NCBI RefSeq assembly: GCF_988242995.1 | Contig: NZ_OZ547043.1 | Direction: 5' to 3' (one strand) | Length of the DNA: 64,000 nt | Shown: positions 2,703 to 59,176 of the stretch, piece by piece | Layout of the letters: each line of letters starts with the position of its first letter | How positions within the stretch are numbered: position 1 is the first letter of the stretch | The notes under the pieces: model-generated | What the model was told of the DNA's origin: nothing | What the model saw: the letters and a program-made list of their open reading frames with translations, nothing else | Databases searched by the model: none | Program-made: the position numbers and the translations under genes

Positions 2703-4085
2703 ATGAAAAAAAACAATAGCCGCCGTGAGTTTCTGAGCCAGAGCTGTAAGATGGTCACCGCCGCCGCGCTGTTTGGTACCTCTGTGCCGCTCGCCCATGC
2801 GGCAGTCTCTGGCACCCTAAACTGCGACGCGAATAACACCATGAAAATCACTGACCCGCACTACTATCTCGACAACGTGCTGCTGGAAACCGGTTTTGAC
2901 TACGAAAACGGTGTGGCGGTACAGACCCGCACGGCGCACCAGACCGTAGAGATTCAGAACGGCAAAATTGTTGCCCTGCGCGAGAACAAGCAGCATCCGG
3001 ACGCCACGCTGCCGCACTATGACGCTGGCGGTAAGCTGATGCTGCCCACCACCCGCGACATGCATATTCATCTCGACAAAACCTTTTACGGCGGGCCGTG
3101 GCGCTCGCTCAATCGCCCGGCAGGCACCACCATCCAGGACATGATCAAACTCGAGCAGAAAATGCTGCCGGAGCTGCAACCGTACACTCAGGAACGAGCG
3201 GAAAAACTGATCGATTTATTGCAGTCGAAAGGCACTACCATTGCCCGCAGCCACTGCAATATCGAACCGGTTTCCGGCCTGAAAAATCTGCAAAATTTGC
3301 AGGCGGTGCTGGCGCGACGTCAGGCGGGCTTCGAGTGTGAAATTGTCGCCTTCCCGCAGCACGGTTTGCTGCTGTCGAAATCGGAACCCTTAATGCGTGA
3401 AGCGATGCAGGCGGGGGCGCATTACGTCGGCGGTCTGGATCCGACCAGTGTTGATGGCGCGATGGAAAAATCCCTCGATACCATGTTCCAGATTGCGCTG
3501 GACTACGACAAAGGCGTTGATATTCACCTGCACGAAACCACTCCGGCAGGCGTGGCAGCCATCAATTATATGGTTGAAACGGTGGAGAAAACGCCGCAAC
3601 TGAAGGGCAAGCTGACCATCAGCCACGCCTTTGCGCTGGCAACGCTCAATGAGCAACAGGTAGATGAACTGGCGCACCGGATGGCGGCGCAGCAAATTTC
3701 TATCGCCTCGACGGTGCCGATTGGCACGCTGCATATGCCGCTCAAACAGTTGCACGACAAAGGCGTAAAAGTGATGACCGGCACCGACAGCGTTATCGAC
3801 CACTGGTCGCCTTACGGCCTGGGCGACATGCTGGAAAAAGCCAATCTGTACGCGCAGCTCTATATTCGTCCTAACGAACAGAACCTCTCCCGCTCGCTGT
3901 TTTTAGCCACTGGCGATGTATTGCCGCTCAACGAAAAAGGCGAGCGCGTGTGGCCCAAAGCGCAGGATGATGCCAGCTTTGTGCTGGTGGACGCCTCCTG
4001 TTCCGCCGAGGCGGTGGCGCGTATCTCGCCGAGAACGGCGACGTTCCATAAAGGGCAACTGGTGTGGGGGAGTGTGGCAGGTTGA
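2703..4085 (+). CDS. yahJ: amidohydrolase-family deaminase with Tat signal peptide
   Basis: 460 aa; N-terminal SRREFLSQ twin-arginine motif; metal-dependent hydrolase His motifs (HIHLD). Confidence 0.85.
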   Translation: MKKNNSRREFLSQSCKMVTAAALFGTSVPLAHAAVSGTLNCDANNTMKITDPHYYLDNVLLETGFDYENGVAVQTRTAHQTVEIQNGKIVALRENKQHPDATLPHYDAGGKLMLPTTRDMHIHLDKTFYGGPWRSLNRPAGTTIQDMIKLEQKMLPELQPYTQERAEKLIDLLQSKGTTIARSHCNIEPVSGLKNLQNLQAVLARRQAGFECEIVAFPQHGLLLSKSEPLMREAMQAGAHYVGGLDPTSVDGAMEKSLDTMFQIALDYDKGVDIHLHETTPAGVAAINYMVETVEKTPQLKGKLTISHAFALATLNEQQVDELAHRMAAQQISIASTVPIGTLHMPLKQLHDKGVKVMTGTDSVIDHWSPYGLGDMLEKANLYAQLYIRPNEQNLSRSLFLATGDVLPLNEKGERVWPKAQDDASFVLVDASCSAEAVARISPRTATFHKGQLVWGSVAG

Positions 4086-4379
4086 TACGCATTTGAAACG
4101 CCTGCAATGGTGAATCGTAAGAGATTTAAAGCCCCAGGGAGTGGGGCGGGAATGGTTTGTTAATGAATGATCCTGAACTTTATAATCTCCCGGCATAATT
4201 TCCAGGGGATTATTTGAGAGAAATACACAAAAGTGAGTTTTAACAATATTTATCAAGCCATAAATGTGACCTGCTTCGGATAAAAAAGATTAAAAATAGA
4301 AAAACCAATGATACTCTTGCTGATGGTTATCAACAGTAATTAAGATGTGATTTTTTTCCGTAATCGCGAAAATATTCTC

Positions 4380-4790
4380 ATGACCATAAAAGAAAAAATC
4401 TCACAAAAATATCCCCATGCTTCCTTTTGTACTTTTGGCGATTCAGCAGCGTTGGCCGATCACCTCGCAACGTTGATTGCGACAGGTGTTAAAACAGCTT
4501 CCTGTGGTTCGCTGGCGGGATGTATTGAAGACAACGCATTTCCGATGATTGGTGAGTATAAGATTGTAGAAAATAGCCGTGGTGAGCCTGTCTGTGTTAT
4601 CAGAGTGATTGGCCTGCATTTACTGCGCTTTTCTGATGTCACCGCGGAGCTTGCCCGTAAGGAAGGTGAAGGTGACCTCAGTCTTGAATATTGGCGTAAT
4701 GAACACCGTCGTTTTTTCCAGGCAGAAGGATGCTATTCACCCGAAATGGACGTTATCTTTGAAGAATATGCCCTTATTGACGTTGTGTAG
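4380..4790 (+). CDS. ASCH-domain protein (YqfB-like fold); not present at this locus in K-12
   Basis: 136 aa from ATG 4380 (MTIKEK...); ASCH-like sequence; an alternative GTG start at 4347 is possible; flanked by AT-rich non-coding DNA. Confidence 0.55.
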   Translation: MTIKEKISQKYPHASFCTFGDSAALADHLATLIATGVKTASCGSLAGCIEDNAFPMIGEYKIVENSRGEPVCVIRVIGLHLLRFSDVTAELARKEGEGDLSLEYWRNEHRRFFQAEGCYSPEMDVIFEEYALIDVV

Positions 4791-5040
4791 ATAACTATTT
4801 TTCTACGCGAAATAAGCTCACAAACATAAAGTATCGCTAATTTTGTTTATTTTGCTGTTTTTTACGTGATGATTGTCACACTTATTGTTACTGCCCGTTT
4901 TGTCCATATTTATAACCAAATTTTTAATAGCTGCCTGAAATAGGGCTGTTTATTCTGCATAAAAATATTCGAAAATTCTTATTCTCTCCAGCGCGCTAAT
5001 TTGGGCGAACACTTCCTGACTACCCTGCAATGAGGCTGAA

Positions 5041-6027
5041 ATGATGAATAAACGTTTTGTTATCAATATGGTGTCTTCGCTGTTATTAGGCGCTGCGCTA
5101 ATTTCTGCGCCGCTCCAGGCAGCGGAAAAAGTCGTGGTGAATATCTCTAAAGTCGATGGTATGCCGTGGTTTAATCGCATGGGCGAAGGTGTGGTCGAGG
5201 CGGGTAAAGCCTTTGGTGTTAATGCGTCACAGGTGGGGCCTTCAAGTACTGATGCTCCGCAACAGGTTAAAATCATTGAGGATTTAATCGCCCGTAAGGT
5301 TAATGCAATTACAATTGTGCCAAACGATGCCAACGTGCTGGAACCGGTATTCAAAAAAGCGCGAGATGCCGGAATTGTGGTTCTGACCAACGAATCCCCC
5401 GGTCAGCCAAGTGCTAACTGGGATATCGAAATCATTGATAACGAAAAATTTGCCGCTGAATATGTTGAGCATATGGCGAAACGCATGGGTGGCAAGGGCG
5501 GCTATGTGATTTACGTGGGTAGTTTGACCGTGCCGCAGCATAACTTATGGGCTGACTTGCTGGTGAAATACCAGAAAGAGCATTACCCGGATATGCATGA
5601 AGTTACCCGCCGCATGCCGGTTGCCGAGAGTGTGGATGACTCACGTCGTACCACACTGGACCTCATGAAAACCTATCCTGACTTGAAAGCGGTTGTCTCC
5701 TTTGGTTCAAACGGTCCGATTGGCGCGGGACGTGCAGTGAAAGAGAAACGGGCGAAAAATAAAGTCGCAGTCTATGGCATGATGATCCCTTCACAGGCGG
5801 CATCACTGATTAAAAGTGGTGATATCACCGAAGGGATTACTTACGATCCGGCCTCTGCAGGTTACGCACTCGCGGCCGTCGCCAGCACGTTGCTGAAGGG
5901 TGAAGAGATCAAACCTGGATTAGAAATGGAGAATCTCGGTAAGGCCGACGTAGATATGGATAAGCGAATTATCCGTTTCCATAAGGTATTACTGGTCAAC
6001 AAAGACAATATCGACTCACTTTATTAA
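5041..6027 (+). CDS. periplasmic monosaccharide-binding protein of a CUT2 ABC transporter (LsrB/YtfQ-like)
   Basis: 328 aa; signal peptide (LLGAALISAPLQAAEK); C-terminal ...VNKDNIDSLY resembles the LsrB family; first gene of a PBP-ATPase-permease-permease block. Confidence 0.8.
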   Translation: MMNKRFVINMVSSLLLGAALISAPLQAAEKVVVNISKVDGMPWFNRMGEGVVEAGKAFGVNASQVGPSSTDAPQQVKIIEDLIARKVNAITIVPNDANVLEPVFKKARDAGIVVLTNESPGQPSANWDIEIIDNEKFAAEYVEHMAKRMGGKGGYVIYVGSLTVPQHNLWADLLVKYQKEHYPDMHEVTRRMPVAESVDDSRRTTLDLMKTYPDLKAVVSFGSNGPIGAGRAVKEKRAKNKVAVYGMMIPSQAASLIKSGDITEGITYDPASAGYALAAVASTLLKGEEIKPGLEMENLGKADVDMDKRIIRFHKVLLVNKDNIDSLY

Positions 6028-6075
6028 TCCATTTCTTCGGGGCGAAAGCCCCGATTCTTATTGCCAGGGGATGCT

Positions 6076-7560
6076 ATGGAAACCTTCCTTTCCCTTCGTC
6101 ATATCAACAAAACGTTTCATGCCACGCGAGCGCTGCGCGATGTTTCTCTCGACTTTATGTCGGGTGAGGTGCACTGCCTTGCCGGGCAAAACGGCTGTGG
6201 TAAATCGACGTTGATTAAAATTATGTCCGGTGTTTATCGCCCGGATGAGGGGGCGGAAATTACGCTTGGTGGGAAAAACTGGTCAAAGCTGACACCCGCC
6301 GCTTCGGTGGCGCAGGGGATTCAGGTGATTTATCAGGACCTCTCTTTATTTCCTAACCTGAGTGTCTGGGAGAATATCGCCGTGAATCACTATCACCACG
6401 GTCTGTTTGTTAACCGCCGTCGTCTGCGTGAGGTGGCGCAGGCGGCAATGACCAGTATTAACGTCACATTGCCACTGGATACGCTCGTTTCTGAGCTTTC
6501 AATTGCCCGCTGTCAGCTGGTGGCAATTTGCCGTGCACTGGCGCAGGACGCACGGTTGATCGTGATGGATGAACCAACCGCTTCGCTGACCCATCAGGAA
6601 GTGCAAGGGTTATTACAGGTGGTGCATCAATTGCGGGAACGCGGGATCTGCGTGGTCTTCGTCAGTCATCGTCTGGAAGAAGTGATGGAAGTTTCCGACC
6701 GTATTTCAGTGCTGAAAGATGGTGAGCTGGTCGGGACCTTTCCGGCCGCAGAGATGACCACAAAACAACTCAGTTTTCTGATGACCGGCCAGGAGTTCGA
6801 ATATCAGGTACGAGAGTTGTGGCAGGGAAAATCCAGCACCCCGGTGCTGGAGGTGCGTAATTTAAGTCGTCATGGGGAATATCAAAATATTAACTTGCGG
6901 GTGGAAGCGGGCGAAGTGGTGTCGATTGTTGGCCTGCTTGGTGCGGGGCGCACGGAATTATGTCTGAGTCTGTTTGGTATGACCCGACCGGATGCTGGTG
7001 AGATCCTCATCAACGGTCAGCCGGTTACACTGCATAGTAACCAGGACGCCATCCGCCACGGTATTGGTTATGTTTCGGAAGATCGCATGTCGCGCGGTTT
7101 GGTGATGGCGCAATCTATTGAAGACAACATCATTAGCACTGTTTTTCACAAGGTAAAAGATCGCTTCGGCTTTCTGAGTGAAGCTAAAGTGCGTGACCTG
7201 GTGGACAGGCTAATCAAGGCATTGACCATCAAAGTCTCTGACCCACATCTCCCGGTGAATACGCTTTCCGGGGGTAACGCGCAGCGAGTATCGATCGCCA
7301 AATGGCTGGCGATTGGGCCACGACTGTTGATTCTCGATAGCCCGACAGTCGGTGTTGATATCGCCAACAAAGCAGGAATATACGGCATTATCAGCGATCT
7401 GGCGGCTCATGGCATTGCGGTATTGATGATCTGCGATGAAATTGAAGAAGCGTGGTATCAAAGCCACCGGATTTTGGTAATGCAGAAAGGTCAGATCACC
7501 CATAGCTTCCTGCCTGACAGCAGTTCTCAGGCCAGGATTGCGGAGGTGGTAAATGGCTGA
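6076..7560 (+). CDS. sugar ABC transporter ATP-binding protein with two nucleotide-binding domains
   Basis: Walker A GQNGCGKST and a second NBD (GLLGAGRTEL), LSGG signature motifs; ATG 6076 preceded by GGGGA Shine-Dalgarno; the track start at 6061 is TTG. Confidence 0.85.
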   Translation: METFLSLRHINKTFHATRALRDVSLDFMSGEVHCLAGQNGCGKSTLIKIMSGVYRPDEGAEITLGGKNWSKLTPAASVAQGIQVIYQDLSLFPNLSVWENIAVNHYHHGLFVNRRRLREVAQAAMTSINVTLPLDTLVSELSIARCQLVAICRALAQDARLIVMDEPTASLTHQEVQGLLQVVHQLRERGICVVFVSHRLEEVMEVSDRISVLKDGELVGTFPAAEMTTKQLSFLMTGQEFEYQVRELWQGKSSTPVLEVRNLSRHGEYQNINLRVEAGEVVSIVGLLGAGRTELCLSLFGMTRPDAGEILINGQPVTLHSNQDAIRHGIGYVSEDRMSRGLVMAQSIEDNIISTVFHKVKDRFGFLSEAKVRDLVDRLIKALTIKVSDPHLPVNTLSGGNAQRVSIAKWLAIGPRLLILDSPTVGVDIANKAGIYGIISDLAAHGIAVLMICDEIEEAWYQSHRILVMQKGQITHSFLPDSSSQARIAEVVNG

Positions 7561-8524
7561 ACTGAAAAAACGTCATGAATTCTGGCTGGCATTACTGATT
7601 GTGGGGCTGTTTGTTGGCCTTGCCTGGCGCAGCGACGAGTTTCTGACATTCGGTAATTTGTACGATCTCGCCAATAACTATGCCATGTTGACTATTCTCG
7701 CCTGTGGTTTGTTTGTGGTGTTAATTTCCGGTGGGATTGATATTTCGTTTCCGGCAATGACCATCATTGCGCAATACGGCATGGTGCTGTTGCTGCAAAA
7801 AATTGGTGGCAACTTTGCTGTCGCGTTTGCACTGGCGGGCGGCATCGGCATTTTACTTGGCTTAATAAACGCCTTACTGGTTAATCGCCTACGGGTGCCG
7901 TCTATCATCATCACCATTTCGACGCTGAATATTTTCTATGGCCTGCTGTTATGGTTGAGTAAAGGTGTGTGGCTGTACGACTTTCCGCCGTGGTTTGAGC
8001 AGGGGGTAATGTTGTTCAAGTACACCGATGCTGACGGCTATGACTATGGCCTTGGTCTGCCGCTGATCGCCATGATTACGGTGGTGCTGCTAACAGCGTT
8101 TATCATGAATTTCACCAGTGTAGGGCGCAAAATTTATGCCCTTGGCGGGAACCGTGAATCAGCCAGTCGCATCGGCTTTAGCGTGCTGAAACTGCAACTT
8201 TTCGTTTACGGCTATATGGGATTGATGTCTGGTGCTGCGGGTGTAGTGCAGTCGTGGACGGTGATGACTGTCGCCCCCGATTCTCTTCTGGGTTATGAGC
8301 TGACAGTACTGGCTGCGGTGGTGCTTGGCGGCACTAGTTTGCTCGGCGGGCGCGGCACGTTAACCGGTACTTTGCTCGGCGTGGTGTTGTTGGCAGTGAT
8401 GCAAAACGGGCTAAATTTATTGGGAGTCTCGTCTTACTGGCAAACATTGATCACCGGCATCATCATCGTTGCCAGCATTAGTGCCACGGCGTGGAGTCAG
8501 CATCAGAACCGGAGTCTGCTATGA
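7553..8524 (+). CDS. sugar ABC transporter permease
   Basis: 323 aa, multi-pass hydrophobic; start overlaps the ATPase stop. Confidence 0.8.
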   Translation: MAELKKRHEFWLALLIVGLFVGLAWRSDEFLTFGNLYDLANNYAMLTILACGLFVVLISGGIDISFPAMTIIAQYGMVLLLQKIGGNFAVAFALAGGIGILLGLINALLVNRLRVPSIIITISTLNIFYGLLLWLSKGVWLYDFPPWFEQGVMLFKYTDADGYDYGLGLPLIAMITVVLLTAFIMNFTSVGRKIYALGGNRESASRIGFSVLKLQLFVYGYMGLMSGAAGVVQSWTVMTVAPDSLLGYELTVLAAVVLGGTSLLGGRGTLTGTLLGVVLLAVMQNGLNLLGVSSYWQTLITGIIIVASISATAWSQHQNRSLL

Positions 8525-9477
8525 AAAAATCGTGGCGTAACAACGTTGAGTTTTACTTGATCGGCCTGCTGGTGCTAACTGTTGCAGCCTTCAGCATTAC
8601 TATGCCGGAGATTTTCTGGTCGATAAGTAATTTCCAGTCCGTCGCTTCGCAAATGCCCGTGCTGGGCATTCTGGCGTTGGCTATGGCGGTGACCATGCTT
8701 TGCGGTGGCATTAACTTGTCAATTATTGCCACTGCTAACGCCTGTTCACTGGTAATGGCGTGGGTGGCGACTCAGTATCCACCGGGTATTGCTACGGTTG
8801 TCGCTACGCTGCTGGCGGGCGCTGGCGCGGCGGTGATAATCGGTTTATGTAACGGCGTATTGATTGCTGGTATTCGAGTGTCGCCAATTCTTGCAACGCT
8901 TGGGATGATGACGTTGCTCAAAGGGGTAAATATTCTGGTGACAGGCGGTAGCGCCATTGCCAATTATCCCTCATGGGTGCTGTGGTTGAATCATGCGCAA
9001 TGGTTCGGTATTCCGCTACCGATGTGGTTGTTTGCCGCAGTGGCACTGGGGCTGTGGATATTGCTGGAGAAAACGCCGCTCGGTAAAGCCATTTATCTGA
9101 TTGGTTCTAACGAACGAGCAACACTTTACTCCGGTATTAACACTCGTCGGGTGCTGATATGGGTGTATGTCATTTCCGCCTTACTTTGTGCGGTAGCGGC
9201 ATTTTTGATGATGTCGAAACTCAACTCGGCTAAGGCCTCTTATGGCGAATCGTACTTGCTGGTGTCAATCCTCGCGGCAGTACTCGGCGGGGTTAATCCG
9301 GACGGCGGCAGCGGGCGGATAATTGGTATGGTGCTGGCGCTGTTTCTTCTGCAAATTATTGAAAGCGGCTTCAATATTCTCGGTATAAGCCCCTACCTGA
9401 CGATGGCCTTATGGGGAACGTTGCTGCTCTGTTTCATTCAGGCTCGCGGCATGTTGGGGCTGGATCGGGTGGTTTAA
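8521..9477 (+). CDS. sugar ABC transporter permease (second subunit)
   Basis: ATG 8521 overlaps the upstream stop (ATGA); hydrophobic 318-aa product. Confidence 0.8.
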   Translation: MKKSWRNNVEFYLIGLLVLTVAAFSITMPEIFWSISNFQSVASQMPVLGILALAMAVTMLCGGINLSIIATANACSLVMAWVATQYPPGIATVVATLLAGAGAAVIIGLCNGVLIAGIRVSPILATLGMMTLLKGVNILVTGGSAIANYPSWVLWLNHAQWFGIPLPMWLFAAVALGLWILLEKTPLGKAIYLIGSNERATLYSGINTRRVLIWVYVISALLCAVAAFLMMSKLNSAKASYGESYLLVSILAAVLGGVNPDGGSGRIIGMVLALFLLQIIESGFNILGISPYLTMALWGTLLLCFIQARGMLGLDRVV

Positions 9478-9563
9478 ATATTGGCTATATTCAATGGACG
9501 CGTTTTGCCGCGATGACATATCAGGCATCGCCAAATACACATAGCTAATCAGGAGTAAACACA

Positions 9564-10613
9564 ATGAAGATCAAAGCTGTTGGTGCATATTCCGCTAAAC
9601 AACCGCTGGAACCGATGGATATTACCAGGCGTGAACCGGGACCGCATGATGTCAAAATTGAAATCGCTTACTGTGGCGTCTGCCATTCCGATCTCCACCA
9701 GGTCCGTTCCGAGTGGGCGGGGACGGTTTACCCCTGCGTGCCGGGTCATGAAATTGTGGGGCGTGTGGTAGCCGTTGGTGATCAGGTAGAAAAACATGCG
9801 CCGGGCGATCTGGTTGGTGTCGGCTGTATTGTCGACAGTTGTAAACATTGCGAAGAGTGTGAAGACGGGCTGGAAAACTACTGTGATCACATGACCGGCA
9901 CCTATAACTCGCCGACGCCGGACGAACCGGGCCATACTCTGGGCGGCTACTCACAACAGATCGTCGTTCATGAGCGATATGTTCTGCGTATTCGTCACCC
10001 GCAAGAGCAGCTGGCGGCGGTGGCACCTTTGTTGTGTGCAGGGATCACCACGTATTCGCCGCTACGTCACTGGCAGGTCGGTCCGGGTAAAAAAGTGGGC
10101 GTGGTCGGCATCGGCGGTCTGGGACATATGGGGATTAAGCTGGCCCACGCGATGGGGGCGCATGTGGTGGCATTTACCACTTCTGAGTCAAAACGCGAAG
10201 CGGCAAAAGCCCTGGGGGCCGATGAAGTTGTTAACTCACGCAATGCCGATGAGATGGCGGCTCATGTGAAGAGTTTCGATTTCATTTTGAATACAGTAGC
10301 TGCGCCACATAATCTCGACGATTTTACCACCTTGCTGAAGCGTGATGGCACCATGACGCTGGTTGGTGCGCCTGCGACACCGCATAAATCACCGGAAGTT
10401 TTCAACCTGATCATGAAACGCCGTGCGATAGCCGGTTCTATGATTGGCGGCATTCCAGAAACACAGGAGATGCTCGATTTTTGCGCCGAACATGGCATCG
10501 TGGCTGATATAGAGATGATTCGGGCCGATCAAATTAATGAAGCCTATGAGCGAATGCTGCGTGGTGATGTGAAATATCGTTTTGTTATCGATAATCGCAC
10601 ACTAACAGACTGA
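9564..10613 (+). CDS. yahK: zinc-dependent NADPH aldehyde reductase
   Basis: 349 aa; GVCHSDLH zinc-ADH motif and GxGxxG fold; SD AGGAG upstream. Confidence 0.9.
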   Translation: MKIKAVGAYSAKQPLEPMDITRREPGPHDVKIEIAYCGVCHSDLHQVRSEWAGTVYPCVPGHEIVGRVVAVGDQVEKHAPGDLVGVGCIVDSCKHCEECEDGLENYCDHMTGTYNSPTPDEPGHTLGGYSQQIVVHERYVLRIRHPQEQLAAVAPLLCAGITTYSPLRHWQVGPGKKVGVVGIGGLGHMGIKLAHAMGAHVVAFTTSESKREAAKALGADEVVNSRNADEMAAHVKSFDFILNTVAAPHNLDDFTTLLKRDGTMTLVGAPATPHKSPEVFNLIMKRRAIAGSMIGGIPETQEMLDFCAEHGIVADIEMIRADQINEAYERMLRGDVKYRFVIDNRTLTD

Positions 10614-10650
10614 AAAAATTAATAAATATCCTGTGGTTTAACATATTAAT

Positions 10651-10688
10651 TTCGCTCTCCACTTAACTTTTTAGTTAAGGAGAGCGAA
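10651..10688. terminator. long hairpin downstream of yahK (putative terminator)
   Basis: 10-bp stem TTCGCTCTCC/GGAGAGCGAA enclosing a second 6-bp stem TTAACT/AGTTAA; weak U-tract. Confidence 0.4.
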
Positions 10689-10855
10689 ATAATATCAAAG
10701 TAGCAGTAAAACCTATAACGTAAATTCAAATTGTTAAATTAACTCCCTCCAGGACACAATACTTCACACGTTAGTTATGAGCGATTTCTGATAGTGCATG
10801 GTTTAATCAGGGCTTTATTATCTGCGACGTTTATTTTTATTTAAGAGAGATCGCG

Positions 10856-11671
10856 ATGATATCATTAAAAGCTCCGCACAATAATTTGATGCCATATACG
10901 CAACAAAGCATACTTAATACAGTAAAAAACAATCAGTTACCAGAGGATATCAAAAGCTCCCTGGTTTCCTGTGTCGATATATTCAAGGTTTTGATTAAAC
11001 AATATTATGATTATCCTTATGATTGTCGTGATGATTTAGTCGATGACGACAAACTCATTCATCTCATGGCTGCCGTACGAGACTGTGAGTGGTCAGACGA
11101 TAACGCACTCACCATAAATGTGCAGTTTAATGATTTCCCAGGATTTTATGACTGGATGGATTACCCTGATCACCCGGTTAAGTTTGTTTTTCGCATACTT
11201 GAAAATCAAAAAGGGACAGTTTGGGTATATGACCAGGATGATGCGTTTCTTGATATTAAAGCAAATGTGCAGGCTGGACGCTTTACCGGGCTTAAGAAAT
11301 TAGTGCAGTTTATCGATTCAGTGCGAACAGATTGCAAATGTATTCTTCTTGAACACCATATGCCTTTGCTGAGACTTTTCCCTAAAGGGAAAGAGTGTAT
11401 GCATGTGGAAAAATGGCTTCGCGAAATGTCGTCTATTCCGGAGACCGACGCACCCATTAAGCAGGCGCTTGCGCATGGATTATTATTACACTTAAAAAAT
11501 ATCTACCCTGTTTTTCCTGAATCACTGGTGATGTTATTGCTCTCTGTTCTGGACGTAAAAACATACAGAGATGATGCGCGATTAAATCAATGGATATCTA
11601 ATAGAGTGCAGGAATTAGGTGACAGATATTATCCTGTAAATAAGCACGTTAAAATCCGCTACACTCTTTAG
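10856..11671 (+). CDS. yahL: protein of unknown function, AT-rich gene
   Basis: 271-aa ORF matching YahL in length and position; low-GC coding sequence. Confidence 0.7.
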   Translation: MISLKAPHNNLMPYTQQSILNTVKNNQLPEDIKSSLVSCVDIFKVLIKQYYDYPYDCRDDLVDDDKLIHLMAAVRDCEWSDDNALTINVQFNDFPGFYDWMDYPDHPVKFVFRILENQKGTVWVYDQDDAFLDIKANVQAGRFTGLKKLVQFIDSVRTDCKCILLEHHMPLLRLFPKGKECMHVEKWLREMSSIPETDAPIKQALAHGLLLHLKNIYPVFPESLVMLLLSVLDVKTYRDDARLNQWISNRVQELGDRYYPVNKHVKIRYTL

Positions 11672-12083
11672 TTCAGAAAGGGTTCCACCTGCGAGTTGTT
11701 ATTCCACCAGAGAGTGAATCGCAAAGCAGGTGATCATTTCATCTGTATATCCGTATGCCAAATGGCATTCCACCGCCTTTTTCGCCGATATTTTGTTGTG
11801 ATCGGCGACACTTCGCTTAAAAAAGCATCAGCAGTGGTTTCGCAGCTATACGGTGTATAAAAAATGATCTCATGCAGATGTTTTGTGAATGTGTGGGTTG
11901 ACATTCATATGAAAAAAATCATAATTCCATCATGTTTGTGTGGGGTCTTTTCTGTATCTTACGCATCGCACTCAAGCCTGACAGAAAATATGCTGTAAGG
12001 CTCATATCAAAAACCGCCATTAGCTCATCAGGAAGAGCAGACGACAACCAGGATTGTTGTATGGTACGGGGTTCGAGGCCTCG

Positions 12084-12329
12084 ATGGCGGTCCAACTTTT
12101 CATAACTCTTCTGAATCAGATCCCCTTATTATCATCCCTGCAAAGTGGAACATTGCCATTGTTTGGCTATTCAGGACGGGTCAGAGCAATGAAAAAAGCC
12201 CACACAGGGGAGAGTGGGCTGAAATGGGAAGCTAAAGACTCAAGTAAACTTATCGGAAATAAGGACCACGCATTACGGGGGCTATCATCGCCGATGGTCG
12301 GGATTCGGCAAATCAGGTTGATTACGTAG
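12084..12329 (+). CDS. yahM: small protein of unknown function
   Basis: 81 aa from ATG 12084; position between yahL and yahN as in K-12. Confidence 0.45.
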   Translation: MAVQLFITLLNQIPLLSSLQSGTLPLFGYSGRVRAMKKAHTGESGLKWEAKDSSKLIGNKDHALRGLSSPMVGIRQIRLIT

Positions 12330-12336
12330 AGAGTAA

Positions 12337-13017
12337 ATTATCTGCTCACCGCTGTGTCACCCCTTCGTAAATCAGGCGTAGCGCGAATACACCAATAATT
12401 GCACCAATAACCCGACTGGCAACGCGTTGCATACGCCCATAAGCACGACGCACAGCGGGCAAAGAAAACGCCTGACTAAGAAAAACGCGCCAGATAATTG
12501 ATGCGAGCACAATCCCCGCTCAGGCCATTAAACGTGCCCATGTTGGTGTTTCGGCATTTAATGTTACTGAGAAAATACTGATAAAAAATAAAACGGTTTG
12601 CGGGTTAGAGAGATCGGTAATTAATCCACGGCGAAAAAAGACATACCAGGGGGCGTTAATCGGTTGTTGTAGTGTGCTCATTTGCGGTGTTGACTGGCGG
12701 CGCATGCTGCACCACGCAAACCATAAGAGATAAGCGCCGCCGACGATTCTGATAAGCGAAAAAATCTCCTCACACTGCGTAATTAGCGTTGCAAGACCAA
12801 ACAAACCCAACCCGGAATAAAATGCATCGCCCAGCGCCACGCCCAGCCCGGTCAGCACCCCTGCGCGTCGACCGGAAGCCAGGCTGGTTTGTACTACCAC
12901 AAAGAGATTGGCTCCCGGATTAAAAAAAGTAATCACGAACAGTCCTACGGTCAGATAAACGGCGTGCAAAGGATCCATAGTGATTTCATCCATAAATAAG
13001 TGAAGTAACTTCATCAT
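12337..13017 (-). pseudogene. yahN: LysE/RhtB-family amino-acid exporter interrupted by an in-frame TGA
   Basis: ORF stops after 165 aa at TGA (12520..12522); the same frame continues past the stop with LysE-like hydrophobic sequence (AGIVLASIIWRVF...RLIYEG); LysE-family proteins are usually about 200-225 aa. Confidence 0.55.
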
Positions 13018-13163
13018 ATTTCTACCAAAAATAATCGGGTGCGAGAGAGATCACAAAGTGTCTTATTTCCGGTTACTGGCGTTTATGCCCTGACTGAACT
13101 AATTATTAATCAACCCAATAATGTGGGTGGGTGATAGTGTGATAACAACTCTGGAGCCGTAAT

Positions 13164-13439
13164 ATGAAAATAATCTCTAAAATGTTAGTCGGTGCGTTAG
13201 CGTTTGCCGTTACCAATGTCTATGCCGCAGAATTAATGACCAAAGCGGAATTTGAAAAGGTTGAATCGCAATATGAAAAAATAGGTGATATTTCAACCAG
13301 TAATGAAATGTCGACTGCAGATGCAAAAGAAGATTTAATCAAAAAAGCCGATGAAAAAGGGGCTGATGTGTTGGTACTGACCTCCGGTCAAACTGACAAT
13401 AAGATCCACGGCACGGCAAATATTTATAAGAAGAAGTAA
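13164..13439 (+). CDS. yahO: periplasmic DUF1471 (YhcN-family) protein
   Basis: 91 aa with signal peptide; recognised YahO sequence. Confidence 0.85.
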
Positions 13440-13506
13440 TTCTGAATCCTATGTAAACATCCCCGATGCGTAAGTTTATCGGTGATCATCATCTATTGAA
13501 ATTTAT

Positions 13507-48929: not shown

Positions 48930-49974
48930 AAGCTAATAATACATACACAACGGAAAGCGGCGCTAAAGGCACCAACAACCAGCAACGATGAAACCAGGCG
49001 CTAAAAGCACCAATAACACAAACTACGCCGACCCAGATAAGCGGAAACATTGCCAACACCACACCATGCGGCCCGGTGGTGATGAATTCATTAAACCAGG
49101 TAGTGAGATAAATCCCAACGCCATAAAGCACAACCAACAGCATAGGAAATATACTGAAGATACCGAAGCGGCTAAATAAAAGCCTTTTATGCAGGCGCAT
49201 ACAGACCGCGTAGCCCACAATCCAACGCCGCCAGCGACGCCATTCCTCACGCGGGCTGTTGCATTCCTGTGGGTATACGATGCAGCGATTCGCCTGCCGA
49301 ATACGATAGCCGTTTGCCACCAATGTCCAGGTGAGATCAAGGTCTTCGACTTTAGTACGATCAGAGAAACCGAACTTACGCAATACATCAGTACGGAACA
49401 TCCCGCAGGCACCGCTGATAATAAACGGTGCGCCGCCCAGGAGCTGCTGTAGCGTGCGCTTCATAACAATCATCGGCAACTTTACGGTCGCGCGGATGTG
49501 CGGTAACAGACCCGCGCCTTTCAACGCAGTAGAGGGAATGCCGCCTACGGCATCAGCACCGCGCTCTATTTCTGCAAGCATATAGCCCATTCCGTCTTGA
49601 TCGGGCGGAACATAGGTGTCGGCATCACTTAAAAAAACCTGGTCGCAGGTGGCGTAATTGAGGCCATTCATCAGCGCACCACCTTTACCGGTATTTTTTT
49701 GCGTGACGGCAACAAAGCGGTCGCCCCATTTGCGTTTGACTTCCGCCATGACCGCTTCGGTATTGTCCGTGGAGCCGTCGTTTACGCAAATTACCCGGCA
49801 AAAATAAGGATTACGCAGCAGATTATCCAGTGACTGTGCCAGACACGGGCCTTCGTTATAAGCAGGTATAATGGCGTCAATACAGCCTTTCTTTTGACTG
49901 GGTTTACGTTTTAGCGTACTTAAAAACCATAGCAACATTGCTATGGACATACAGATAAATATCCAGGTTTTCAT
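48778..49974 (-). CDS. yaiP: family-2 glycosyltransferase with C-terminal membrane domain
   Basis: 398 aa; GT2 motifs (VNDGSTDNT, SDADT). Confidence 0.9.
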   Translation of the reverse strand: MKTWIFICMSIAMLLWFLSTLKRKPSQKKGCIDAIIPAYNEGPCLAQSLDNLLRNPYFCRVICVNDGSTDNTEAVMAEVKRKWGDRFVAVTQKNTGKGGALMNGLNYATCDQVFLSDADTYVPPDQDGMGYMLAEIERGADAVGGIPSTALKGAGLLPHIRATVKLPMIVMKRTLQQLLGGAPFIISGACGMFRTDVLRKFGFSDRTKVEDLDLTWTLVANGYRIRQANRCIVYPQECNSPREEWRRWRRWIVGYAVCMRLHKRLLFSRFGIFSIFPMLLVVLYGVGIYLTTWFNEFITTGPHGVVLAMFPLIWVGVVCVIGAFSAWFHRCWLLVPLAPLSVVYVLLAYAIWIIYGLIAFFTGREPQRDKPTRYSALVEASTAYSQPSVTGTEKLSEA

Positions 49975-49983
49975 GCAATTTGC

Positions 49984-50655
49984 TCAAAGAATCATTTTAT
50001 GAATTACAAAGCCTTCACCCAGATCGCTATTGACCTGTTGCCCGCGAAATTGTGCAACTGCACGCAGGCGATCATGACGCATATAATCGCGTCGTTCCTG
50101 GCTTTTATGTTTTTTTAATGCAGCAAGTTTGACTGTGAAATATTCTTCTTTAACGGATTCAAAAACCTGAGGCATAAATGAAAGCCAGGTGCTTGGGGTT
50201 TCGTAGCCGAGAATTTGTGGAATAGTTCGGCAGGCAACCATTGAAGCTTGATAAACAGCAAGATGATCCTGATGGCGGTCGGCATCATGCATGGTATATA
50301 CCCGCATGATTTCAACATCAGAAGGAATTTGATTTTTAATGATGTCTTCCAGGGCGGAAATCATATCATTGAGCTGCAAATGCGCGCGGGTGTCAGCAAA
50401 ATTAAGATGAATAGTTTGGTGGCACCCTAATATCTTTAGGGCGTTGCGCGATTCTTCATGGCGATCGATTATTCCATCTGTGCCAGAGTTGCCGGTAGTC
50501 ATCACCACGGCTGCGATATAAATTCCTTTTTGCGCAAGACGAGCAAGCGACGCGCCACAGCCCAATTCTATATCATCAGGATGTGCGCCAATAGCAAGGA
50601 TACCCTTTCTTTTATTTGCCGAAGAAAGGATGGCTGAATCTAAAACCTTATCCAC
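49984..50655 (-). CDS. yaiS: PIG-L/LmbE-family deacetylase
   Basis: 223-aa ORF with AIGAHPDDIELGCG motif; the K-12 annotation may use a shorter start. Confidence 0.8.
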   Translation of the reverse strand: MDKVLDSAILSSANKRKGILAIGAHPDDIELGCGASLARLAQKGIYIAAVVMTTGNSGTDGIIDRHEESRNALKILGCHQTIHLNFADTRAHLQLNDMISALEDIIKNQIPSDVEIMRVYTMHDADRHQDHLAVYQASMVACRTIPQILGYETPSTWLSFMPQVFESVKEEYFTVKLAALKKHKSQERRDYMRHDRLRAVAQFRGQQVNSDLGEGFVIHKMIL

Positions 50656-51263
50656 TTAATGACACTCCATTTTATTTATTATACTACAAGCACAACGATG
50701 CCCGCAGAGACGTAATCTCTGGCACAGACAGATGCTAATTTTTAAGTGTTAAAAATTACTGATAGCTGAAAAATAAGGGGCTTTCAGGTACGGGGATACG
50801 GCTGCGTAATCTTTTATGTAGTTCATATGTTAAGTGTTTGTGTGTTTGGTTTGTATAGTTATTTTGTTTTATATATTGTATTTAGATGTGATTTAGTTTG
50901 TCAATTAATTACATATTAAAAATATGTTCTAGGCACAAATATGGATTATATACATTATGTGAATGTATTATGTGGTTGATTGAGAATGATACAGTTATAT
51001 ATGCAATGTGAATATAATGATTTCATTATATGTATTGCTGTTAATAAAATAAAAGACATTATGTTCTGCTTGTTTATGCATTAATAAAAATGAAGTGCAG
51101 TAACTTACTGAATTGTCAGAGTGGGTGTAATTGCATATTTAATCTTTCCTTTGCCGCTTTTTTGCTAAGAATAAAATCATCTGTGCGATAACGACTAATT
51201 CTTTTAATGAATGTTTTTATTCCTGAATACTGCTCCTATAACAAGACAGGGGAGCAGACAATC

Positions 51264-52226
51264 ATGGCAATTTCATCGCGTAACACACTTCTTGCCGCAC
51301 TGGCATTCATCGCTTTTCAGGCACAGGCGGTGAACGTCACCGTGGCCTATCAAACCTCCGCTGAACCGGCGAAAGTGGCTCAGGCTGATAACACCTTTGC
51401 TAAAGAGAGCGGGGCGACGGTGGACTGGCGTAAGTTTGACAGCGGAGCCAGCATCGTGCGGGCGCTGGCTTCAGGCGATGTCCAAATCGGTAACCTCGGT
51501 TCCAGCCCATTAGCGGTGGCAGCCAGCCAACAGGTGCCGATTGAAGTCTTCTTACTGGCGTCAAAACTGGGTAACTCCGAAGCGCTGGTGGTAAAGAAAA
51601 CTATCAGCAAACCGGAAGATCTCATTGGCAAACGCATCGCCGTACCGTTTATCTCCACCACCCACTACAGCCTGCTGGCGGCGCTGAAACACTGGGGTAT
51701 AAAACCCGGACAAGTGGAGATAGTGAACCTGCAGCCACCCGCGATTATCGCCGCATGGCAACGGGGAGACATTGATGGTGCTTATGTCTGGGCACCGGCG
51801 GTTAACGCCCTGGAAAAAGACGGCAAGGTGCTGACCGATTCTGAACAGGTCGGGCAGTGGGGCGCGCCGACGCTGGATGTCTGGGTAGTGCGCAAAGATT
51901 TTGCCGAGAAACATCCTGAGGTCGTGAAAGCGTTCGCTAAAAGCGCCATCGATGCTCAGCAACCGTACATTGCTAACCCAGACGCGTGGCTGAAACAGCC
52001 TGAAAACATCAGCAAACTGGCGCGGTTAAGCGGCGTGCCTGAAGGTGACGTTCCGGGGCTGGTGAAGGGGAATACCTATCTGACGCCGCAGCAGCAAACG
52101 GCAGAACTGACCGGATCGGTGAACAAAGCGATCATCGACACCGCGCAGTTTTTGAAAGAGCAGGGCAAAGTCCCGGCTGTAGCGAACGATTACAGCCAGT
52201 ACGTGACCTCGCGCTTCGTGCAATAA
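51264..52226 (+). CDS. tauA: taurine ABC transporter periplasmic binding protein
   Basis: 320 aa from MAISSRNTLLAALAFIAFQAQA... Confidence 0.93.
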   Translation: MAISSRNTLLAALAFIAFQAQAVNVTVAYQTSAEPAKVAQADNTFAKESGATVDWRKFDSGASIVRALASGDVQIGNLGSSPLAVAASQQVPIEVFLLASKLGNSEALVVKKTISKPEDLIGKRIAVPFISTTHYSLLAALKHWGIKPGQVEIVNLQPPAIIAAWQRGDIDGAYVWAPAVNALEKDGKVLTDSEQVGQWGAPTLDVWVVRKDFAEKHPEVVKAFAKSAIDAQQPYIANPDAWLKQPENISKLARLSGVPEGDVPGLVKGNTYLTPQQQTAELTGSVNKAIIDTAQFLKEQGKVPAVANDYSQYVTSRFVQ

Positions 52227-54717: not shown

Positions 54718-55692
54718 TTAACGCAGAATCTTCTTCTCAGCCAAATCCAGTGCAAAGTAGCTGAAAATCAGATCCGCACCCGCACGCTTAATCGAACCTA
54801 AGCTTTCGAGCACGACTTTCTCTTCATCTATAGCACCCGCCAGCGCGGCGAACTTAATCATCGCGTACTCACCGCTCACCTGATACGCGCCAATCGGCAA
54901 TTCAGTACGTTCACGCAGCTCACGCACGATGTCGAGGTACGCTCCAGCAGGTTTAACCATCAGGCAGTCTGCGCCCTGGGCTTCATCCAGCAGTGACTCA
55001 CGAATCGCCTCACGACGGTTCATTGGGTTCATCTGATAGCTTTTGCGGTCGCCTTTTAATGCGCTGCCGGCAGCTTCACGGAACGGGCCATAAAAGGAGG
55101 AGGCGAACTTGGTCGAATACGACATAATCGCCGTGTCTTTAAAGCCCGCAGCGTCCAGCGCCTGGCGAATTGCCTGTACCTGGCCGTCCATCGCGGCGGA
55201 AGGGGCGATGAAGTCTGCACCTGCAGCAGCTGCAACCACGGCTTGCTTGCCTAAATTTTCCAGAGTCGCGTCGTTGTCGACGCCATGCTCGCACAGCACA
55301 CCGCAGTGACCGTGAGAAGTGTATTCACAGAAACAAGTGTCTGACATGACGATCATTTCTGGCACAGTCTGCTTGCAGATGCGCGACATACGCGCCACCA
55401 GTCCATCTTCCCGCCAGGCGTCGCTGCCGGTTTCATCGGTATGGTGAGAGATGCCGAAAGTCATCACGGAACGAATACCGGCGTTGGCGATGCGTTCAAT
55501 TTCGCGTGCCAGATGTTTCTCTGGAATGCGCATCACGCCTGGCATGGCTTCAACGGCTTTGTAGTCGTCAATTTCTTCTTCAACAAAGATCGGCAACACC
55601 AGGTCGTTAAGGCTAAGTGTTGTCTCTTCAAACATAGCGCGCAGCGCAGGAGATTTGCGCAGGCGACGAGGGCGTTGGATTAAGTCTGTCAT
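54718..55692 (-). CDS. hemB: porphobilinogen synthase
   Basis: 324 aa from [20 protein letters not shown]... Confidence 0.95.
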
Positions 55693-56215
55693 GGTCTGCC
55701 TGATGTTTGTGGAATCGAGGGGCATAGTATACCTGAAGCAGGGTAGGGATGTTTTACGAAAGTTGTCGCGATGTTGACAAGAAGAGAATGGAAGAGAGGC
55801 CAGGACATCTTTGTAATAGAAATAGCAATAATTTCATATTCACTGAAAATATTTTTAATCTTTATTTATAGTTATTGGTTATTATTTTTTGGAGTTTGGT
55901 TGCGCTGCTACAAATTGAATAATTAAAACTTTGTTGTATATTCATAGGATATTTATCTGGTTTGTGTTTGTGATATTTATGATGCATATGTTTCAAAAAT
56001 AACATTATCTGCAACATATTGAAATATGGTGTTTTTATCAATTCGATGCGTGTTTTTCTCCATAAATTACATATGTCCACATTCGGACTTAGGGGAAAGA
56101 ATAATTGAACCATTCCTCTATAACGCCGCATAATCGTCAACGCGAAACATAATATGTTTTCTATGCATTGATAATTGATGGATCAACTTATTACGTCCCT
56201 GAGGAGGGATGACAA

Positions 56216-59176
<2,961 letters not shown>

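Follow-up and report, generated by a model that had tools for sequence, protein, structure and literature searches.

Two differently evolving modules in the AT-rich yahL interval of Escherichia coli, both probably of foreign origin

Here, we analyzed the AT-rich interval around the gene yahL, at positions 10614-12083 of a 64,000-nucleotide stretch of contig NZ_OZ547043.1 (NCBI RefSeq assembly GCF_988242995.1); the whole stretch is called the window below. We consider it probable that this interval consists of two differently evolving modules, both of foreign origin and both acquired before E. coli separated from its closest sister Escherichia lineage. The first module (10614-11897) would comprise yahL, predicted to encode a soluble 271-aa protein of no recognisable family, together with two AT-rich spacers, and would have been inherited vertically; yahL appears to diverge faster than its neighbours and to be kept by purifying selection, and one illegitimate 836-bp deletion probably accounts for its loss in a lineage to which well-known B2 strains belong. 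The second module (11898-12105) is predicted to lead from a near-consensus promoter into a leaderless xtpA transcript that carries an argN-derived tRNA-like element.

The locus is largely known already, as both yahL and xtpA are annotated, and yahL is an ordinary ancient lineage-specific gene, not a new kind of element. Our results add the exact yahL-only deletion in 1073 genomes, the argN homology of the tRNA-like element, an RNA core that seems frozen beside decaying open reading frames (ORFs), and a distant YahL relative in an island with type III secretion genes. That a fast-evolving module adjoins an ultra-conserved one also shows that a dip in composition should be taken as one unit only with caution.

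Composition and extent of the interval

The first-pass annotation, made from the sequence, had described yahL and its flanks as markedly AT-rich compared with neighbouring genes, and this part of its description stands. The G+C content of 10614-12083 is 39.0% versus a window mean of 52.1%, about 2.9 standard deviations below that mean, and equally low 1470-bp windows make up 0.6% of all those in the stretch. In sliding windows, G+C falls from 0.51-0.56 across the upstream genes to 0.35-0.44 at about 10250-12250. The yahK-yahL spacer has a G+C content of 31.8%, yahL itself 39.0%, and the yahL-yahM spacer 43.4%, as compared to 53.0% for yahK and 55.6% for prpR. Codon usage sets yahL apart from its neighbours as well, a point on which the annotation had staked its proposal. 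Of the window's 51 ORFs with 150 aa or more, yahL has the lowest G+C (0.390), the lowest G+C at third codon positions (0.378; mean 0.574, standard deviation 0.080) and the lowest codon typicality (0.557; mean 0.676, standard deviation 0.054). The RefSeq gene order in near-identical E. coli genomes is yahK, yahL, yahM, yahN, yahO, prpR, and the gene names match. The features of the two modules are as follows.

10614..10855 (242 bp), no strand: yahK-yahL intergenic spacer, the piece richest in AT, presumed to hold the yahL promoter region
10649..10690, plus strand: perfect 12-bp inverted repeat with an 18-nt loop, just 3' of the yahK stop codon
10850..11685, no strand: 836-bp variable segment, namely the yahL ORF with 6 bp on its 5' side and 14 bp on its 3' side, from alignment with strain E2348/69
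10856..11671, plus strand: yahL coding sequence (271 aa), found as an ORF and annotated "protein YahL" in RefSeq
11672..11897 (226 bp), no strand: fast-evolving spacer 3' of yahL
11898..11925, plus strand: near-consensus sigma-70 promoter (TTGACA, 16-nt spacer, CATAAT; 11/12 positions)
11932..12105, plus strand: xtpA ORF, 57 codons here versus 60 in K-12, matching K-12 RefSeq b4845
12014..12094, plus strand: tRNA-like element of 81 nt inside xtpA with an encoded 3' CCA, called "tRNA-Ser(gga)" by ARAGORN

These features do not behave as the single islet that had been proposed. Only the yahL segment (10850-11685) varies in presence and absence, and both AT-rich flanks persist after its deletion, as seen in E2348/69; the yahK-yahL spacer is kept up to 10849 in genomes without yahL. 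The right-hand limit at 12083 splits the tRNA-like element. The dip is also not unique, since G+C drops to 38-43% in three other segments of the window, near 4.0-5.5, 49.5-51.8 and 55.2-57.5 kb. At 49493-51800 and 55224-57500, the 1470-bp minima of 37.8% and 39.8% G+C are as extreme as the yahL interval. Closer by, yahO (13164-13439) has a G+C content of 37.7% and the yahN-yahO spacer (13018-13163) 40.4%, and both are 94-96% conserved between lineages; local AT-richness is therefore not confined to the variable gene.

Inheritance and loss of yahL

We examined the distribution of yahL, which had been suggested as a check on its origin, and found it to be narrow: protein and species-genome searches place it in E. 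coli and one sister Escherichia lineage, in each case between yahK and yahN. In a word-indexed search of 5.8 billion proteins, all YahL matches were labelled E. coli, with full-length forms 98-99%, 88% (P0003) and 80% (P0004) identical to the query. When 1.84 billion cluster representatives were searched in full with HMMER, the only additions were fragments and a distant relative, P0027. P0010, which resembled an orthologue at 48% identity, was discarded because the metagenome contig behind it is rich in indels and shares 96% identity with E. coli. We also scanned 100,044 species-representative genomes for short peptide patterns and obtained yahL from two records only, although such patterns can miss a gene; the two are a 98%-identical contig of a metagenome-assembled genome and "E. 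coli SCPM-O-B-8794", a separate GTDB species representative. The E. coli representative, which we take to be ATCC 11775, is missing among these hits, and this would be explained by the deletion that ATCC 11775 carries. A published BLASTp survey likewise found YahL in E. coli and Shigella only (PMC11057252).

Comparison with the sister Escherichia lineage (L006 and L011) bears on the age of the gene. Across the region, this lineage shares about 89% identity with the window and has yahL between yahK and yahN, and the number of synonymous substitutions per site (dS) is 0.65 for yahL and 0.67 for yahK. Given the synteny at this identity and a dS like that of yahK, yahL was therefore present in the common ancestor and inherited vertically. 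Its protein has changed faster than its neighbours', as the number of non-synonymous substitutions per site (dN) is 0.106 for yahL and 0.014 for yahK, and dN/dS is 0.164 for yahL, 0.021 for yahK and 0.053 for prpR. Judged from these substitution patterns, yahL is a real coding gene under moderate purifying selection (dN/dS 0.16).

An intermediate lineage, L017, shows where the divergence is concentrated. In L017, yahL is 90.2% identical and its spacers are 89-92% identical, versus 94-96% for yahK, yahN, yahO and prpR (yahK 96.4%, prpR 94.3%), and yahL is therefore a local divergence hotspot. The spacer 3' of yahL (11672-11897) is 89.4% identical in L017, where yahK reaches 96.4%. In the sister lineage, the yahK-yahL spacer is 80.9% identical versus 88.5% for yahK, and 11672-11931 is 75.1% identical in L006 with 129 gap columns, mostly due to an extra block of about 120 bp there. 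This block (L006 6820-6965) lies directly 3' of the yahL stop codon and is extra relative to E. coli. Within the yahK-yahL spacer, the hairpin at 10649-10690 is probably the yahK terminator from its position; it has no T-run, and the terminator scan made no call.

The loss of yahL probably goes back to one event. The whole 2-kb region is present in 4018 of the 5426 complete E. coli genomes by megablast, and most of the other matching genomes show 58% query coverage in two pieces. We counted the deletion in the same genomes by end-to-end matches of a 120-bp probe spanning the junction, and the identical junction was found in 1073 of them (~20%), once per genome and always on the chromosome. Because yahL was in the common ancestor, its absence from junction-bearing genomes is a secondary loss. 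These genomes include ATCC 11775, NU14, O25b:H4, JJ1887 and E2348/69, all of which we take to belong to phylogroup B2, and from the strains recognised the deletion apparently occurs mostly in this phylogroup. A repeat scan found no direct repeats or target-site duplication at 10850/11685.

The deletion has a practical side, as yahL has been proposed as an E. coli/Shigella-wide marker for quantitative PCR (PMC11057252). The published primers fall inside the deleted 836-bp segment, and the assay should therefore miss junction-bearing genomes such as those of the type strain ATCC 11775 and of ST131/ST95-type strains (ST, sequence type). About 20% of complete genomes are thus expected to escape it.

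The xtpA module and its tRNA-like element

The promoter at 11898-11925 is the best promoter-like site in 10400-12500. It ends 6 nt 5' of the xtpA ATG, and the predicted transcription start is the A of this ATG at 11932, which would give a leaderless transcript. The stretch 11898-11931 is 100% identical in L017, and the hexamers are identical at every locus examined, including the sister lineage. A preprint describes repression of a "yahM" promoter by IHF (10.1101/2025.05.13.653802); this promoter may be the xtpA promoter described here.

XtpA is identical to its K-12 counterpart over 57 residues, and its ORF lies between yahL and yahM and spans the tRNA-like sequence, as expected of the xtpA locus. 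The peptide has 57 aa here and in L017, owing to a stop at K-12 Lys58, as compared to 60 aa in K-12 and E2348/69, and codon 4 of xtpA is a stop in the sister lineage. Muto et al. (2022, J Biochem 171:459; cited in RegulonDB v12) reportedly described xtpA as a leaderless mRNA with a tRNA-like sequence, whose small peptide is said to regulate GcvB; the leaderless transcript predicted here agrees with the title of their paper. The unknown function that the first-pass annotation had assigned to the whole interval thus does not extend to the 3' flank, which holds the annotated xtpA leaderless mRNA with its tRNA-like sequence.

The element at 12014-12094 folds as a cloverleaf in which the acceptor, D and T arms are normal and the anticodon arm is aberrant, with 7 bp and a 6-nt loop. 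No tRNA match to it was returned at E<=1 by the Rfam scan, whose models include tRNA, and RefSeq annotates no tRNA there. We rejected it as a canonical tRNA on two grounds, namely the lack of an Rfam tRNA match and an anticodon arm that departs from 5 bp with a 7-nt loop. Its relatives are found in phages and on a plasmid: identity is 85% with an unannotated phiP27 element between ileZ and argO, 86% with the "tRNA-OTHER" of an Ile-OTHER-Arg array on a plasmid, and 74-77% with argN of Stx2 phages. The differences from these homologues lie only in the anticodon arm. A blastn search of the interval against 50,697 phage records matched only 81-89 nt of the tRNA-like element, and not yahL, the spacers or yahM. 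ARAGORN found no other tRNA in 10000-13500, where ileZ and argO are absent and the argN-slot homologue stands alone, outside any lambdoid three-tRNA array.

The conservation of this element exceeds that of its surroundings. Within it, not one base differs among K-12, E2348/69, the window, L017 and the ~89% identical sister lineage (L006 7282-7362), and it is at least 99% identical in 4821 of the 5170 matching E. coli records; the xtpA module is present in ~95% of complete E. coli genomes. At yahK's divergence of 11.5%, 81 nt would remain free of changes with a probability of about 5e-5. As the tRNA-like core and the hexamers are unchanged where the xtpA and yahM frames are broken, the conserved object looks like an RNA. 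We therefore tentatively raise the possibility, to which we give somewhat less than even chances, that a domesticated tRNA-like RNA derived from phage argN is the functional unit here and that the xtpA and yahM frames are lineage-specific by-products. This RNA-level reading goes beyond, and partly questions, the published peptide-centred description of xtpA, and the choice between RNA and peptide function is testable.

The phage homology also raises the possibility that the whole interval is a relic of the late or "moron" region of a lambdoid prophage, with yahL as cargo that arrived together with an argN-like tRNA. The late and moron regions of Stx phages carry AT-rich cargo genes, and the tRNA-like element has its homologue in the argN slot, located between a phage DNA methylase and the stx/moron genes. 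We consider this origin unlikely, since similarity to the phage records is confined to the tRNA-like element (81-89 nt), both ileZ and argO are missing, the two modules differ strongly in evolutionary rate, and yahL has been lost by itself.

Beyond xtpA, two further features bear on the region 3' of yahN.

12084..12329, plus strand: yahM ORF (81 aa), annotated in RefSeq, which starts within the 3' acceptor strand of the tRNA-like element
12191..12219, minus strand: GC-rich hairpin followed by a T-run, inside the yahM ORF and ~130 nt 3' of the yahN stop codon

The coding status of yahM is doubtful, as a frameshift makes it a pseudogene in E2348/69 and several stops interrupt it in the sister lineage. 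The hairpin at 12191-12219, which was also found as the terminator part of a weak Rfam match, is probably the yahN terminator, and yahM-yahN has been listed as a convergent excludon (PMC12288877). Long stretches of 12110-12330 are nearly unchanged in the sister lineage despite the broken yahM frame. This segment could be a conserved 3' untranslated region (3'UTR) of yahN or a small RNA derived from that 3'UTR. The Rfam scan gave only weak matches, one like a repetitive extragenic palindromic (REP) element and one driven by the terminator, both far under the gathering score. In the yahO-prpR spacer, 13506-13564 matches naRNA4 of Rfam with 27 bits, as compared to a gathering score of 59.5, and is probably a REP-type hairpin. 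Further upstream, a block of ~5 kb between yahJ and yahK (~4100-9480) is present here and in the sister lineage and absent from K-12 and E2348/69. It carries a gene for an ASCH-domain protein and a four-gene ABC transporter of the sugar or autoinducer-2 (AI-2) type, and its left end (4000-5250) has a G+C content of 40-42%.

Origin of yahL, the YahL protein and comparison with known systems

Horizontal acquisition of yahL, as the first-pass annotation had proposed, is supported by its atypical composition and codons, its narrow distribution and the adjoining phage-type tRNA-like sequence; what needs correcting is its timing and fate, as the acquisition is old and the gene has been maintained. 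Sampled YahK homologues of S. bongori and another genus stand in unrelated neighbourhoods without a yahL-like gene. They were rejected as outgroups for the insertion boundaries, not being syntenic. In Salmonella, yahN-yahO-prpR is presumably syntenic without yahKLM. An insertion at a host tRNA gene does not fit the locus, as the adjoining tRNA-like element is phage-derived and not a host tRNA target.

Several points weigh against our reading of the interval. The point at which yahL was gained, with respect to E. albertii, E. fergusonii and the cryptic species, appears bracketed only by absence from the protein database. ORF inspection and a repeat scan showed no integrase, insertion sequence (IS) or flanking direct repeats around yahL. 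No donor emerged, as neither phages nor natural plasmids yielded a relative: YahL had no tblastn match among phages, and with YahL and P0027 as tblastn queries the plasmid hits were all yahL itself, in large E. coli records, some of them chromosome-sized. AT-richness alone is also not diagnostic of foreign DNA, because yahO is equally AT-rich.

With no donor and no mobility signature found, an extremely narrow distribution and fast protein evolution (dN 0.106 versus 0.014 for yahK), AT-rich intergenic DNA of the Escherichia ancestor might instead have given rise to yahL, either de novo or through runaway divergence of the local sequence; the composition of the gene would then reflect non-coding ancestry and not transfer. 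We regard this as improbable, and slightly more so than the prophage relic. The distant relative P0027 is 24% identical to YahL over its full length (E 1.7e-11) and shares the motifs CKxILL, PLL and VQF with it. In a draft E. coli genome (GCA_009799345.1), its gene, with 31.5% G+C, is part of an unrelated AT-rich island of the yjiG-yjiH region and stands next to genes for an inverse autotransporter (1350 aa), a TPR_3 class chaperone and an SseC-type translocator. As P0027 lies on AT-rich accessory DNA, the family existed elsewhere, which argues against de novo origin. The dN/dS of 0.16 indicates an established coding constraint, and a protein of 271 aa with two predicted ordered domains would be an unlikely recent product. 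The island itself (L009 7100-16828) is rare and also carries an IS256-like remnant; the part with the P0027 gene (L009 7100-9900) was matched by none of the 5426 complete E. coli genomes.

That yahL is non-functional, decaying DNA, persisting by chance or as a spacer or platform for nucleoid proteins, we consider very unlikely: although its product stays under 1 part per million (ppm), it is dispensable in ~20% of genomes, it has no known function and truncated forms (P0006-P0008) exist in the protein database, the 271-aa ORF is intact across ~11% divergence with 71 synonymous and 64 non-synonymous changes relative to the sister lineage and a dN/dS of 0.16, and the full-length cluster has 6040 member sequences versus a few hundred truncated ones.

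YahL has been measured at < 1 ppm, roughly 6 copies per cell (PMC5053530), and strong peaks at yahL, classed as "inside gene", were reported for the sigma-28, sigma-24 and sigma-32 holoenzymes in systematic evolution of ligands by exponential enrichment (SELEX; PMC5493296). TpA steps number 76-116 per kb in the interval (116 in the yahK-yahL spacer) versus 44 per kb in the window, an AT/TpA enrichment of 2-3-fold, at an AT content of 61-68%, and 20-mers of at least 80% AT make up 7% of the interval versus 1.5% of the window. Silencing of yahL by H-NS, which the first-pass annotation had thought probable, is plausible from this AT and TpA richness and the low YahL level. Nucleoid proteins (H-NS, with IHF nearby) may bind the AT-rich yahL DNA, and such binding would keep YahL at few copies per cell and suppress promoter-like sites within the gene. 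There are counterpoints: the H-NS high-affinity motif TCGATAAATT occurs at three sites with up to 2 mismatches, and 28% of equal-sized windows have as many; yahL insertions affected fitness despite near-zero expression (Price et al., PMC5053530).

Family scans with Pfam, PHROGs, NCBIfam and PADLOC returned nothing above noise for YahL, P0027, XtpA or YahM. We modelled YahL with AlphaFold (AF2) from an alignment of four sequences, which gave a mean predicted local distance difference test score (pLDDT) of 71.6 and a predicted template modelling score (pTM) of 0.69. In this model, residues 1-25 are disordered, about residues 30-140 form a helix on a five-stranded sheet, and 146-258 a helical bundle. 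Because no catalytic signature was seen, we propose that YahL acts through protein-protein contacts; it would most likely be a low-copy, non-enzymatic protein-binding or regulatory factor, that is, a regulator or adaptor rather than an enzyme. Two results speak against reading a function from this fold: one of the five AF2 models was confident and four were poor, and Foldseek gave no significant fold match to the model (best E-value 0.018). A fold match to EspG was rejected as evidence of function, being weak (probability 0.77, template modelling score 0.20).

The neighbours of P0027 give a faint hint of one more specific role, membership of YahL in a small family of effectors or regulators associated with type III secretion systems. 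The N-terminus of YahL has no acidic residue before position 30 and is disordered in the model. However, yahL itself is not genetically linked to such a system, and we think this role highly improbable. A transposon hit in yahL is listed in a capsule screen, with "No" in the follow-up column.

Among known systems, yahL resembles the H-NS-bound, silenced xenogeneic AT-rich genes of E. coli K-12 (Singh et al. 2014, PMC3923964). Its G+C content is ~13 points lower than that of the host, its codons are atypical and its distribution is narrow; in addition, it is hardly expressed, and RNA polymerase binds promiscuously within it. In contrast to those genes, the yahL segment is short (~1.3 kb), ancient, vertically inherited and without mobility genes. 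YahL also shares with the taxon-specific signature proteins YdjO and YjfZ, among which it has been listed, a limitation to E. coli/Shigella-type genomes (PMC11057252). Unlike the universal marker proposed in that work, yahL is missing in 1073 of the 5426 genomes and is present in a lineage outside E. coli sensu GTDB.

The second module has its own counterparts. It has the locus and sequence of K-12 xtpA, with the promoter placed for a start at the ATG, whereas the ORF is 3 codons shorter here and is broken in the sister lineage, where the tRNA-like core is identical. As compared to the ileZ-argN-argO array of phiP27, Stx2a phages and mEp460, whose argN-slot element it matches at 75-85% identity overall, the element is a solitary chromosomal copy without ileZ, argO or flanking phage genes and with a rebuilt anticodon arm, while its acceptor, D and T arms and its CCA are nearly identical to those of the array.

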